This document shows positions 80 through 5,388 of a stretch of 64,000 nt of DNA, in pieces. Under the pieces are notes generated by a model. That model was given only the letters and a program-made list of their open reading frames with translations. It did not search any database and had not been told where the DNA came from. The DNA comes from an uncultured Nitrososphaerales archaeon (lineage in GTDB: Archaea; Thermoproteota; Nitrososphaeria; Nitrososphaerales; Nitrososphaeraceae), in contig CAVPXM010000053.1 of the NCBI GenBank assembly GCA_963709405.1, forward strand, positions 32,001 to 96,000, read 5' to 3'. Position numbers and translations under genes: made by a program. Each line of letters starts with the position of its first letter. The first letter of the stretch is position 1.

Positions 80-1343
80 TTGCACTGGAAGGATACACTG
101 CCTGACTGGTATATCAAAGAATATGGATATCAACCAAATATTAACATAGGCACGTCCGGTCATGTTGACCATGGAAAGACTACTCTAGTAGAGGCTATAA
201 CTGGGGTTTGGACAAGCGCACATAGCGAGGAATTAAGGAGAGGCATTACTATTAAGGTGGGCTATGCTGACGCAGCTTTTTATAAATGCCCACAGTGTCC
301 CCCGCCTGATTGTTACTCTACTAATCCAATATGCGCGAATTGTGAAGGAAAAAGCGAGCTGTTGAGAGTCGTAAGTTTCGTAGACTCTCCAGGCCACGAA
401 AGCCTAATGGCAAACATGTTGTCGGGATCTGCTCTTATGGATGGAGCAATCCTAGTCGTTGCTGCCGAACGATCGAGTTCCCCAACCTCAGACACGAGAG
501 CACATGCTTGCTCTACAGGTCCTCGGAATTAAGCAGATAGTAATTGTTCAAAATAAAGTAGATTTGACTGACCCGGAAAATGCATTAGAAAATTATGAAG
601 AGATAAGGGATTTTGTGAAGCATAGTGTAGCTGAGAGTGCTCCGATAATTCCGGTATCTGCACAGCACAAAATCAATATCGATGCCCTGATAGAGGCAAT
701 AGAGGGAACAATAAAGACTCCTGTTCGAATGAAAAATGCAAATGCAATAATGCACGTCTTGCGCTCATTCGATGTGAACAAGCCTGGAATTAGAATAAAA
801 CAGGTCAAAGGAGGAGTCATAGGAGGAGCTTTAATTCAAGGCGAATTTAATGTAGGCGACGAAGTTGAGATTCGACCTGGCTTCTTCGACGAAAAGAAAG
901 GCAAATACGAGCCGATTAATTCTACTCTCGCGACATTGGGTACAGGAGCCGGCTTGGTAGAAAATGTGAAACCAGGTGGACTCATTGCTCTTGGTACTAA
1001 ATTGGATCCAACCTTTGTGAAGAGTGATTCCCTGATCGGCTCCGTTGTTGGGAGGCCGGGAGACTTACCTAAAGATATTGAAGATATATCGGTGGAAGTG
1101 CACCTTTTTGATACCGCGGTAGGTACTCAAGAATTGGTTAAGGTTGATCCCATCAGAGTGAAGGAACCATTGAGATTAAATGTAGGGACAGCAACCGCTC
1201 TGGGAACGGTTGCAGGTACCAGAGATGACAAAGTAGAGATAAGATTGAAGAAACCTGTCTGTATGATGCCTAAGAGCAGGGTAGCTATTAGCAGGAGGAT
1301 AACAGACAGGTGGAGATTAATAGGAGCTGGCATAGCTTCATAA
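80..1343 (+). CDS. eif2g: Translation initiation factor aIF2 gamma subunit (split by an apparent +1 insertion at ~466-467)
   Basis: [18 protein letters not shown], zinc-knuckle cysteines, DSPGHE, NKVD and C-terminal RWRLIGAG. Removing one base in GCTGCCGAAC joins ORFs 80..532 and 459..1343 as [12 protein letters not shown]. Confidence 0.95.
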
Positions 1344-1686
1344 GAAAACATATATTCTCACTCAATGATACAACACCTGACGTAAGATATGTTACGCAAG
1401 ATCAGACAGCATTTCAGGTTTTCAAACCCCTTAAAGTTCCAGGCTGGCTTCTCTCCTCTAGGTCATAGCCAAGATACGCTTACTTATGAATCTCTATTTT
1501 AGAAATTAAATATTTCAAACAAAACTGGTATGTATCGCTTTACGCGTGGAGTAGCATTTATCAGCCTTTCCAAATATTTTTTGCAACATCTCTGGTAACT
1601 CATAATAAATCAGTTTGTCTTCGGATAGCATCGGCTCAGTTTTATGGGAAGGTTTTTAATCTAGAATCAGTCCGTCATAAAGGATA

Positions 1687-2787
1687 ATGAAGGTTCTCGA
1701 TATAGCGAAAACAAAAGTCCTCAGTCTTGATCCTGAAGAGACGGTAGGCAAGGCGTTGAGTCTAATGTATGAAAACAAGATTCATCAAATTCCGATTATC
1801 GACACTGACTCCGTATACAGGGGTATGATATTCGCAAAACAATTTCTAACTGTAAATGCTCTACCACACTCTAAAGTCAAGAGTTTTATTAGTAATACTC
1901 CCTCACTTGATGAAAGTGACGACGTTGAAAAATGTGTCCAACTAATGGTCGTCACTGGAAATAGGGCCTTACCACTGCTTGAAAGTGGAAGACTTACAGG
2001 CCTACTCAGTGAGATTGATATTCTTACGATTTCAGATTTTGGACATGCTATCGTAGACGAAGTGATGTCTGGAGCAATTGTGATCGAAGAACAGACAGCT
2101 CTAGGCAATGCATTGTCAAAGATGCGTCGATATAATATATCACGTCTTCCGGTTATCACTCCAAATGGGATTCTTGTTGGTATTATTAATTCGCTAGACA
2201 TAGCTGAGGTCATTTCCACGCCAATAGAAAGGTCTACGAAGTCTAAGGGAATCGGTGGCTTGGTTGCTATCAGAGATCTTAAAGTGAAATCCATCATGAA
2301 ACGCCCGATTTCTGTTGAAAGGGGTACAAGAGTGAATGATGTCGTAGCCCATCTCAAAAATAGTGAAGAGATTGTTGTTGTTGGGGATAAGAGGCCTATT
2401 GGAATCATTACTCCAAAGGATATCTTGGAACTAATTCTTCCTAGGATGAACAAACCTACGGTCCATGTGGCCCATCTAGATGACGAAAATGCCCGATCAG
2501 AAATCGAGATTCAAATGCACAAATTTTTAGATAAAATTCGGGGAAAAATGGGAGATATTCACCTAGTAGTAGTTTACGCTGATAAACACAAGACTCGTAA
2601 GTATTCTATGCGTGCAAGACTAATCACAACTACAGGAGTAATCGATGCAAAATGTGTTGCATTCGATCCTTTAAGCGCATGTAAAGGAATGATAGCCAGA
2701 CTCGATAGGCGGATAAAATCTGAACATAGCCAAAAGGTCAGAAATAGGCAGCACGCTAAATCGGCGAGAGGTTATGAATTAGAATAG
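1687..2787 (+). CDS. Four-CBS-domain protein with C-terminal HPF/RaiA-like domain (candidate ribosome hibernation factor)
   Basis: Two CBS pairs (IHQIPII, NRALPLL..GLLS..DI, ISRLPVI..GII, IGIITPKDI). The last ~110 aa show a beta-alpha-beta-beta-beta-alpha pattern with a basic final helix (ARLDRRIK), as in HPF/S30EA. Confidence 0.75.
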   Translation: MKVLDIAKTKVLSLDPEETVGKALSLMYENKIHQIPIIDTDSVYRGMIFAKQFLTVNALPHSKVKSFISNTPSLDESDDVEKCVQLMVVTGNRALPLLESGRLTGLLSEIDILTISDFGHAIVDEVMSGAIVIEEQTALGNALSKMRRYNISRLPVITPNGILVGIINSLDIAEVISTPIERSTKSKGIGGLVAIRDLKVKSIMKRPISVERGTRVNDVVAHLKNSEEIVVVGDKRPIGIITPKDILELILPRMNKPTVHVAHLDDENARSEIEIQMHKFLDKIRGKMGDIHLVVVYADKHKTRKYSMRARLITTTGVIDAKCVAFDPLSACKGMIARLDRRIKSEHSQKVRNRQHAKSARGYELE

Positions 2788-2918
2788 CGCAGATGAGGAG
2801 ATTCGAACTCCTGATCGCCTAGAGGCGAATCGGCTAGCTTTTAGCCCCGTAACTCAAGGCCGACGCATTATTATGTTCATGCTGCTCTGAGCACCGAAGA
2901 CCACTCTGCCACATCTGC
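2788..2918 (-). tRNA. tRNA-Ser(UGA) with two introns (D-loop and canonical 37/38)
   Basis: Minus strand: acceptor GCAGATG/CATCTGC with discriminator G. D arm GCAGAGTGGTC...AATGC is interrupted by ~28 nt. Anticodon arm TCGGC-CTTGAG[17-nt intron]A-GCCGA. Long variable arm TCGCC-TCTA-GGCGA. T loop GTTCGAATC. Confidence 0.9.
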
Positions 2919-3538: not shown

Positions 3539-4207
3539 TCAGTCCTTGGGGAGAATCTTCGTTTCACAAATTTTAACAAGATTACTAAAGGTTACTGCAT
3601 CTTTTTCAGAGCCCACAATTGTTCCATAATGCATAGGTATAACAAGTTTCGTTGGTCTTATAAGTTCGTTTGTTGCTTTTGCCGCCTCTTCTGCAGTCAT
3701 GACATATGTTCCAGATACCGGCACCAAGGCAATATCTGGTCTCATGAATTCCATTTCTGGGATGATATCCGTGTCACCAGCATGATATAGTCGATATTTG
3801 CTTCCTACAATTATAAAGCCCACCTTATTATCTATCTTGGGATGGAAACTCTTGTTGGTATTATATGCGGAAACAACCTCTATTGGCACACCTTGAATTG
3901 TCAACATGTCACCTGGCACGACTCCTTTCAGTTCATTTGGAAGATCAGTTAACTTTTCAATACATTCCTGCGCGGCTAATATACTGGTATTTGCATTTGT
4001 GATTTCATTCAAATCCTCTGGACTCAAATGATCAAAATGTGCATGTGAAATTAGAACTATATCCGCATCATGGGCATTTTTTTTGGATTCACTCAACCGG
4101 TAAGGATCGATATAAACAGTTTTCTCCTCGTTATGATTATTCATTAATATTATTTTGAATCCATCATGGCCAAGCCATGACAGCCGAATGGAATCATATT
4201 CTAACAT
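3539..4207 (-). CDS. Metallo-beta-lactamase fold hydrolase (UPF0173/UlaG-like)
   Basis: WLGHDGF, IDPY, SHAHFDH, YHAGDT and IPMHYG motifs. Confidence 0.9.
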   Translation of the reverse strand: MLEYDSIRLSWLGHDGFKIILMNNHNEEKTVYIDPYRLSESKKNAHDADIVLISHAHFDHLSPEDLNEITNANTSILAAQECIEKLTDLPNELKGVVPGDMLTIQGVPIEVVSAYNTNKSFHPKIDNKVGFIIVGSKYRLYHAGDTDIIPEMEFMRPDIALVPVSGTYVMTAEEAAKATNELIRPTKLVIPMHYGTIVGSEKDAVTFSNLVKICETKILPKD

Positions 4208-4240
4208 ATCATCTCTTGAGATGCTTTTTAATTTAAAGGT

Positions 4241-4630
4241 TTAATATTGGATATCATTAGCTACTATCAAGCGATTTTTGCTTAGTGTAAATACAAGGAT
4301 TTTATATTGAATTAACTTTCTCTTTAGAACGATATCCAACGTTGCAGCCGCACATCTATTGGTCAAAGCATATTCAACTATCGCATCATCTACAAGATGA
4401 GAATGTGTAAATTTAACTATTTCAAATTTGGAAAGAGCAATTTTAACTGCAGTTCTAGCTGCCATGGATCGTTTTGGTCCTGACATCTTCTGTAAGTGCT
4501 TTAATTCATCCAGTACAATATCTGGAACTAAGAAATTCAACTTACCCAATTCGGCCTCAATTGTATCCAATTGTTTTATTGGATTAGAAACGAGGACCAT
4601 AAGAAAACTAGTATCGCAAATGACCTTCAT
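4241..4630 (-). CDS. PIN-domain nuclease (Fcf1/Utp24-like)
   Basis: VICDTSFLM, VPDIVLDEL, VDDAIV and ATLD acidic PIN motifs. Confidence 0.85.
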   Translation of the reverse strand: MKVICDTSFLMVLVSNPIKQLDTIEAELGKLNFLVPDIVLDELKHLQKMSGPKRSMAARTAVKIALSKFEIVKFTHSHLVDDAIVEYALTNRCAAATLDIVLKRKLIQYKILVFTLSKNRLIVANDIQY

Positions 4631-4839
4631 GATTAGTACAATACAATACTAATTAGTGATAGGACATATATTCTATGAAGATAACAAGAAGTAAAATTCA
4701 ACGGTTCATGAATTTCATCTTTGATAGTCATGATACTACTCAGGCAAATCAATAACTGTATGAACGTTACGGACATAGATATAGCACCTTAAACCAACCT
4801 GACTATTATCCATTGCAAAAAATATAAGTTAAAATTGCA

Positions 4840-5388
4840 TTGCAAATAACTTGCCACACAAGCCTATTGTTTAGAGGAGCATTTATTGGTCGGTTTCAAC
4901 CCTTACATCTGGGCCATCTGGCCACTATAAAGTATGCGCTACGTGGTGTACATGAGCTTATAATTGTAATTGGTAGTGCTCAAAAGAGTCATGAATCAAA
5001 AAATCCGTTCACGGCTGGCGAGCGGATCGAGATGATAAGAGATTCATTGCAGGCAGACCGTGAAATTAACATGGATAAAATATTTTTGATCCCTGTCCCT
5101 GATATTGATATACATAGTCTGTGGACTCATCAGGTAGACCTTCTGGTTCCAAGATACAACGTGATTTTTACCAATGATATATTTACAAGACAATTATACA
5201 TCGAGAGGGGGATCACTGTAATAGAACCCGCAATGTACAGGCGAGAAGAATTTTCTGCCACCGAAGTAAGAACTAGGATAGCAAATGGGCAGGAATGGAA
5301 ACAATTAGTCACTCATCAAACTGCCAAAATTATTGAAGAGATAGGAGGAATTGAACGAATACGCCAGCTTTATAATCTTGCCCAATAG
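4840..5388 (+). CDS. nadM: Nicotinamide-nucleotide adenylyltransferase
   Basis: FIGRFQPLHLGH, GSAQ, NPFTAGERIEMI, SATEVR. True start may be TTG near 4867. Confidence 0.93.
   Translation: MQITCHTSLLFRGAFIGRFQPLHLGHLATIKYALRGVHELIIVIGSAQKSHESKNPFTAGERIEMIRDSLQADREINMDKIFLIPVPDIDIHSLWTHQVDLLVPRYNVIFTNDIFTRQLYIERGITVIEPAMYRREEFSATEVRTRIANGQEWKQLVTHQTAKIIEEIGGIERIRQLYNLAQ

Follow-up and report, generated by a model that had tools for sequence, protein, structure and literature searches.

The window, a stretch of 64,000 nucleotides, lies on contig 53 of 100 in the source assembly (4.83 Mb, 91% complete) of an archaeon of the family Nitrososphaeraceae. The genome carries an archaeal amoA gene (E 5.2e-118), and the term 'AOA-like' used in an earlier note on this DNA, which had been made from the letters alone, therefore holds. 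The gene under study, referred to below as hibA, is an uninterrupted open reading frame located between an aIF2-gamma gene and a tRNA gene, and both of these neighbours, named in the same note, have been confirmed (Table 1).

Table 1. Features at the hibA locus, with positions counted from the first letter of the window
Feature	Position	Strand	Description
hibA/AHA-type gene	1687..2787	+	Open reading frame; ATG start, 366 aa (366 codons) plus stop; CBS tetrad and HPF/RaiA-like domain
N-terminal CBS module, residues 1-253	1687..2445	+	Four CBS domains, two Bateman pairs (Pfam, model)
CBS3 extended loop, residues 180-197	2224..2277	+	Equivalent of the HibA 'PTC loop' / AHA 'loop 3'
HPF/RaiA-like domain, residues ~256-345	2452..2721	+	Predicted; VIA-align, Foldseek, domain profile A2
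Basic C-terminal tail, residues 346-366	2722..2784	+	Extends the last helix; putative role
tRNA-Ser(UGA), class II	about 2788..2918	-	Convergent, abuts the hibA stop; two introns (D-loop region, 37/38)
aIF2-gamma	80..1343	+	NCBIfam NF003077; two fragments, 1-base insertion near 465

The tRNA gene beside hibA is found neither by ARAGORN with default settings nor by Rfam at the gathering score; Rfam gives a match of 18.2 bits, below gathering, and ARAGORN in intron mode (-i) places a tRNA at 2787-2918 and names it Glu. The identities that ARAGORN assigns to this tRNA and its orthologues (Glu, Gln, Ile, Phe and Leu) are mutually inconsistent and were dropped in favour of a reading from an alignment of 14 sequences, in which the exons are conserved and the introns variable, the edges of intron 1 being approximate. 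In one relative (locus L015), the tRNA is without intron 2, displays the anticodon loop CUUGAGA and a long variable arm, and matches the long-arm tRNA-Sec model with 34.2 bits. Because of this loop and this arm, the tRNA is read as Ser(UGA), and it is a real, intron-bearing gene. It adjoins hibA at all five loci of the same genus and at 9 of the 10 more distant ones; aIF2-gamma stands next to hibA in the genus and one other genome only. The two fragments of aIF2-gamma match positions 6-131 and 119-409 of the 412 positions of NF003077. The extra base that separates them is absent from all five same-genus genomes and is 'left out' in the contigs of all four public runs, two of which are DNA runs and otherwise identical there. 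Because the base is absent from relatives and public runs alike, the split is an assembly error, and programmed frameshifting or pseudogenisation of aIF2-gamma is ruled out by the same relatives and contigs.

The protein consists of four CBS repeats followed by a C-terminal domain, as the earlier note had described. Pfam recognises four CBS stretches (PF00571, E 2.4e-33), and all of the peptides that had been quoted (PTVHVAHL, VVVYADK, YSMRARLIT, VIDAKC and ARLDRRIK) are found in the translation. The AlphaFold2 model, made with an alignment of 115 full-length homologues (alignment A1), has a mean pLDDT of 93.1, and its sole dip in confidence is the CBS3 loop (block 181-190, pLDDT 56). The CBS module of this model is similar to the tetrads of SriA/SriB (9znf_4, E 3.8e-21, TM 0.81 by target), and further CBS-tetrad fold matches include MJ1225, AMPK-gamma, and Dri. 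A Foldseek search with the whole-protein model gave at least 500 matches; those listed are CBS-tetrad proteins only, and the HibA entries (9SR9 series and 9L96) are absent from among them. Because CBS matches fill the list in this way, the C-terminal domain needs a separate fold search. Pfam applied to the window's protein alone likewise reports nothing besides CBS at E ≤ 10, and NCBIfam gives CBS-type matches only, which are partial and far under the cut-offs. As evidence against an HPF domain, however, this CBS-only result was overruled by later profile and fold tests.

In the AlphaFold2 model, the elements that follow the CBS tetrad are, according to DSSP, a strand (258-262), a helix (267-283), three strands (291-300, 306-314 and 318-325) and a long final helix (328-365), and the last 27 residues (340-366) contain 10 K/R/H against 4 D/E. 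A single-sequence model is confident for residues 256-366 alone and, being confident in the C-terminal domain only, was used as the domain-only search probe. With VIA-align against 48,161 representative PDB chains, the best 16 rows are all HPF-type (Z 9.6-12.5, model residues 253-366), with an rmsd of 1.7-3.0 Å over 92-103 residues; below them, the scores fall to Z 8.6, followed by a series of dsRBDs. A Foldseek search of the PDB gave HPF-type proteins in each of the 32 rows listed within ranks 1-37, under the names HPF, RaiA/YfiA, pY, MPY, RafH, and 'ribosomal subunit interface'. The best of them is 8fmw_W (E 6.3e-6). Most rows have a TM by target of 0.6-0.81, the ten best rows have an rmsd of 2.4-3.4 Å over about 90-105 columns, and the earliest unrelated row has an E of 0.021. 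Both programs thus return for the predicted domain the HPF/RaiA fold that the earlier note had proposed.

The same relationship appears at the level of sequence profiles. A profile of the C-terminal domain alone (A2, 23 sequences), compared with PDB sequences, matches P. abyssi HibA (4.2e-11) and chain 9l96_a (1.9e-7) as well as the bacterial factors HPF (9sda_9, 2.1e-4), RaiA/YfiA (3.6e-4) and E. coli HPF (6h4n_x, 4.5e-3). All 14 matches at E ≤ 0.01 are either HibA-type (2) or bacterial HPF/RaiA/YfiA-type (12); at E ≤ 10 there are 29 matches, of which 22 are bacterial HPF-type and five are unrelated, every unrelated one having E > 0.06. The Pfam family PF02482 (Ribosomal_S30AE; gathering cut-off 23.7 bits) is reached at E ≤ 0.01 by 48 of the 115 full-length relatives. 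The window's own protein has no match to PF02482 at E ≤ 10, and a PF02482 scan of the source genome lists only another paralogue (19 bits), with the window's protein absent. Because the cut-off is missed, the domain is treated as homologous and kept outside the Pfam family. The HPF link of the protein rests on profiles, relatives, and predicted fold, which together indicate that its C-terminal domain is HPF/RaiA-like in fold and in profile-level sequence.

The top two phmmer matches among PDB sequences are 9l96_a, a 'CBS domain-containing protein' of 406 aa (E 2e-19), and 9sr9_H, the HibA of Pyrococcus abyssi with 392 aa (E 1.1e-17, query residues 10-352). Profile A1 aligns end to end with both, giving E 5e-82 for 9sr9_H (positions 2-367 against residues 5-382) and E 6.6e-64 for 9l96_a. 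Identity to HibA is low, and distant members of A1 show 20-30% identity with the window's protein. HibA (PAB0961, PDB 9SR9-9SRF) has been described by Madru et al. (Nat Commun 2026; PMC13324472), and given the end-to-end alignment with it, the earlier note was right about the description of CBS-HPF fusions as hibernation factors in Thermococcales. According to the accessible part of that paper, HibA's C-terminal domain occupies the mRNA/tRNA channel of the 30S subunit, and its CBS module adopts three positions on the 50S subunit, one of which puts a 'PTC loop' (190-207) in the peptidyl-transferase centre (PMC13324472). A second member, AHA, is HVO_2384 of Haloferax volcanii (Souza et al., EMBO J 2026; PMC13728122). 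The survey given in the available portion of that report covers 3160 homologues in 2723 archaeal species, includes a Nitrososphaera viennensis protein among its queries, and places archaeal HPF domains in a separate clade (PMC13728122). Knock-out phenotypes are reported for both HibA and AHA in the abstracts (PMC13324472; PMC13728122).

The full-length homology to a factor characterised by cryo-EM supports the reading of the protein as an archaeal ribosome hibernation factor, which the earlier note had suggested. The window's gene very probably encodes a ribosome hibernation factor of the HibA/AHA family in a Nitrososphaeraceae ammonia oxidiser, the function being assigned by homology. Architecture, predicted fold, family membership, residue conservation, and the amoA-bearing genome are shown for this protein. 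It is an ordinary member of the family and nothing new in kind, since the family, its mechanism, its archaeal spread and its presence in Nitrososphaera are already in print (2025-2026).

Residues conserved across the family are kept in the window's protein, both in the CBS part (G46, G105, S108, D111, G165, D171, G239, T242, K244 and D245) and in the C-terminal domain (Y306, S307, R309, R311, T314 and G317). The ribose-phosphate motif of CBS domains is G-h-h-T/S-x-x-D. Because the conserved Asp and Thr residues of CBS3 and CBS4 are kept, these two sites are likely to bind adenine nucleotides, with AMP preferred, by analogy with the solved relatives. The CBS3 loop aligns to residues 190-207 of P. 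abyssi HibA without an indel (phmmer alignment, residue count), and the stretch 178-200 that holds it has 23 residues, the family mode being 22-23. In HibA, the affinity of the CBS module decreases in the order AMP > ADP > ATP, with a Kd of 12 µM for AMP by ITC (PMC13324472, accessible part), and the AHA map contains two AMP at CBS3/CBS4 (PMC13728122, accessible part). A further proposal in the earlier note, namely that the protein couples energy charge to ribosome silencing, reaches further than this binding. HibA-ribosome complexes formed in vitro are described in the accessible text as unchanged by AMP or ATP (PMC13324472), and the energy-sensing step is therefore unproven even in the model organisms.

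The cryo-EM structures available for HibA (P. abyssi) and AHA (Hfx. volcanii) allow a mechanism to be proposed by homology. The HPF-like domain (~256-345) would lie in the 30S mRNA/tRNA channel and cover the A and P sites, with the basic tail extending in the direction of the mRNA exit channel. On the 50S subunit, the CBS tetrad at the N-terminus would dock and fill the tRNA space, from which the CBS3 loop (180-197) could enter the peptidyl-transferase centre. With the HPF domain on 30S and the CBS tetrad on 50S, a single polypeptide would therefore bridge the two subunits, excluding mRNA and tRNA, and the covalent CBS-HPF link would keep the 70S ribosome together. Idle 70S ribosomes would in this way stay intact, inactive and protected during starvation or stress. 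Ribosome binding, nucleotide binding and the physiological role are all features that the window's protein would be expected to share by homology.

The protein exhibits considerable likeness to HibA, including full-length sequence homology and a CBS3 loop as long as the PTC loop of HibA, but there are also differences. It has 366 aa against 392 aa and is distant in sequence; in addition, its HPF domain has a beta2-beta3 hairpin that is shorter by about 5-6 residues. At the position of a conserved Trp of the family (W in 90 of the 115 sequences), the window's protein has a Phe, within 'VAFDP', and the host of HibA is a hyperthermophile, whereas that of the window's protein is a mesophilic aerobic soil nitrifier. 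AHA belongs to the same family under another name and is likened here by description, pdb 12DM not being among the matches; its two AMP at CBS3/CBS4 have been seen, whereas nucleotide binding by the window's protein would be the expected counterpart. The likeness to bacterial HPF/RaiA (YfiA, pY) lies in the predicted C-terminal fold (Z up to 12.5) and in profile-level sequence similarity, and by homology the binding site in the 30S channel would be the same. However, the HPF domain is here fused to a CBS tetrad, whereas bacterial HPF occurs alone or with the long-HPF dimerisation domain.

Other proteins share only the CBS part. SriA-D / ARC-A,P of Methanosarcina and Dri of Thermoproteota have the CBS-tetrad fold (9znf_4, TM 0.81; 9e7f_3, TM 0.67) and are ribosome-bound in published structures, but they are without an HPF domain, and the HPF-like domain of the window's protein therefore sets it outside this type. 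Dri consists of two tetrads, and the orientation of its tetrad on the 50S subunit is described in the accessible part of the AHA report as turned by about 180 degrees relative to AHA (PMC13728122). Eukaryotic AMPK-gamma resembles the protein in its four-CBS disc and its adenine-nucleotide sites at CBS3/CBS4 (Foldseek E ~1e-17, TM 0.66-0.71 by target), but it is a kinase subunit, lacks an HPF domain and plays no part at the ribosome.

Homologues of the window's protein at E ≤ 1e-3 number 441 among 4374 candidate proteins, and the best 120 of these 441 show 55-100% identity over 93-100% of the query. In a 50%-identity representative library, 2368 proteins match at E ≤ 1e-3, 514 at E ≤ 1e-10 and 51 at E ≤ 1e-30, many of these matches covering residues 1 to about 355 with 25-35% identity. 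Among the matches listed, the named homologues belong to Nitrososphaeraceae, including N. gargensis (59% identical) and Nitrosopolaris. Of 24 further genomes searched within the family, 20 have the window-type gene (E < 1e-70); among 16 genomes that each represent another family of the order, one has it. RNA-library contigs from two studies cover the open reading frame at 95-99% likeness (X15 records 11/14, X16 21-23; those of X16 gapped), which is a weak hint of hibA transcription, contaminating DNA being a possible source.

The source genome encodes a second, very divergent paralogue with four CBS domains and an HPF domain (G000:C22:22735-24006, 424 aa). This protein (P0272) matches alignment A1 with an hhalign probability of 99.8 (E 5.8e-28) and scores 18.4 bits on PF02482, under the cut-off. 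Its type occurs in 7 of the 24 genomes from the family and in 10 of the 16 from other families. At least one of the two types is present in all 24 same-family genomes, and both occur together in four genomes, the source genome (G000) included. A search for the locus of the second paralogue in close relatives yielded Nitrososphaeraceae/Nitrososphaera-type records and, apart from these, a single 'Nitrosopumilales' record; Nitrosopumilaceae are reported in the accessible part of the HibA paper to be without known hibernation factors (PMC13324472). A third copy, at C16:18039-19095, is decayed and contains stop codons. With the C-terminal domain as the query, the source genome also gives a weak match at C69:103702-103836 (E 0.004, one TGA).

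Because a second paralogue is present, the window's copy need not be the main hibernation factor of its host. It might bind ribosomes but be sub-functionalised with respect to ribosome state, subunit, stress, or ligand, and either copy could be the general factor. The two proteins are only 23% identical in the CBS part (BLASTP) and yet both fit the family profile, the genome distributions of the two types differ, and the AHA report, in its accessible part, describes more than one paralogue per genome as frequent (PMC13728122). Nevertheless, the window type is the nearer of the two to solved P. abyssi HibA (E 1.1e-17 at full length versus 2e-8, partial, for the second paralogue), and within the family, 4 genomes have the second type only and 17 the first only, which looks more like interchangeable use than like a division of labour. 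Such a sub-functionalised role for the window's copy is judged improbable. Less credible still is the view that the protein is a regulator built on a CBS tetrad and working mostly away from the ribosome, for example as a transcription regulator of the HhpR/CM-3 kind or through nucleotide-dependent binding of replication or recombination proteins, with the HPF-like domain reused as a generic module for binding RNA or protein. CBS tetrads have many roles, one of them being that of the transcription factor HhpR, and pull-downs with Thermococcales HibA show links to replication and recombination proteins (PMC13324472, accessible part); moreover, the fold matches under the HPF rows are dsRBDs with Z up to 8.5. 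However, the HPF-type matches reach Z 9.6-12.5 over 91-105 residues, whereas the dsRBDs stay at or below 8.5 over 60-81 residues. Homology to ribosome-bound HibA spans the full length, PTC loop included, and HhpR-type proteins are without an HPF domain.

The distribution of the two types also suggests a broader, though tentative and on balance doubtful, scenario for Nitrososphaerales. Two anciently diverged lineages of the CBS tetrad-HPF fusion may exist in this order, one centred on Nitrososphaeraceae, whose HPF domain has drifted away from PF02482, and the other wider and order-level. Across the genomes covered by the search, the two are distributed in a largely either/or manner, with a few large soil genomes keeping both together with decayed copies, and if they differ in ligand, ribosome state or stress response, this would amount to a two-tier hibernation system. 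Such a system, if true, could help to explain the persistence of soil ammonia oxidisers through drying and ammonia starvation. For the biology of nitrifiers, the HibA/AHA-type gene is a concrete candidate, with a second paralogue beside it, for ribosome preservation in starved soil ammonia-oxidising archaea. A literature search combining ammonia-oxidising archaea with hibernation factors found no work on archaeal hibernation in the accessible parts of the sources returned.

Finally, we suggest that the gene be annotated as a 'HibA/AHA-type ribosome hibernation factor', which is worthwhile because Pfam and the NCBI names give only 'CBS domain-containing protein'. The expectation in the earlier note that routine annotation would call it a CBS protein and nothing else is correct for these two sources but not for JGI, where many close homologues, among the matches listed, carry the name 'CBS domain-containing protein/ribosome-associated translation inhibitor RaiA'.

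The window's CBSx4-HPF protein, encoded by hibA, is accompanied in its source genome by a second, divergent paralogue on another contig (Table). The two proteins share 23% identity in the CBS part. On the second paralogue, the Pfam model of bacterial HPF/RaiA, PF02482, scores 18.4 bits (E 0.0037), which is under its gathering cut-off of 23.7 bits, and an hhalign comparison of this paralogue with the family profile, built from 115 full-length homologues of the window's protein, gives a probability of 99.8. The window type was found in 20 of 24 genomes of the same family and in one of 16 from other families of the order; for the second type, the corresponding counts are 7/24 and 10/16.

The source genome also contains a stretch in which the second paralogue is matched three times in succession; these matches are broken up by TGA and TAG stops and look like a decayed third CBSx4-HPF copy. 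In a relative from another family of the order (G033), only the HPF part of the second paralogue (residues 315–413, E 7.5e-17) is matched by a short open frame, a stand-alone HPF-like gene. Its occurrence is in line with PMC13324472, according to which stand-alone HPF-like genes are found mostly in DPANN and Nitrososphaerales.

Table. Features of the hibA neighbourhood and related copies elsewhere
Feature	Location	Strand	Remarks
aIF2-gamma	window 80-1343	+	break near 465
class II tRNA	window 2788-2918	-	intron-bearing
metal-dependent hydrolase	within window 3539-5388	-	NF001911, E 4.7e-31
archaeal nicotinamide-nucleotide adenylyltransferase	within window 3539-5388		TIGR01527, E 5.9e-56
129-aa ORF	within window 3539-5388		no NCBIfam match
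second CBSx4-HPF paralogue, 424 aa	G000:C22:22735-24006 = L010:493-1767	+	outside window
putative third copy	G000:C16:18039-19095	+	outside window; three adjacent matches to second paralogue
130-aa open frame	G033:C1:435457-435753	-	relative from another family of the order

The hibA stop codon adjoins the 3' end of a tRNA gene, and this adjacency is kept in all five same-genus loci and in 9 of 10 more distant ones. No tRNA was called in this interval by ARAGORN at default settings or by Rfam at the gathering score. ARAGORN -i names it Glu, a misnaming when set against an alignment of 14 sequences, from which the gene is read as tRNA-Ser(UGA). Its D-loop region carries intron 1, and intron 2 is located at 37/38; the version in the relative L015 is without intron 2.

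In the window, a single extra base at the break splits aIF2-gamma into two ORFs that overlap. This base is missing in all five same-genus genomes and in contigs from all four public runs, and on these grounds both a pseudogene and a programmed frameshift were rejected; the break stems from a mistake in the assembly or sequencing of the window's record.

Among the downstream neighbours, the metal-dependent hydrolase is syntenic in four of the five same-genus loci, the contig of the fifth (L007) ending about 120 bases past the hibA stop. The 129-aa ORF may loosely be labelled as putatively PIN-like. Upstream, a TATA-like element, TTTTTAAT, lies on the forward strand at window 1653-1660, approximately 30 nt 5' of the hibA ATG, a position that would be consistent with an mRNA that is leaderless or nearly so.
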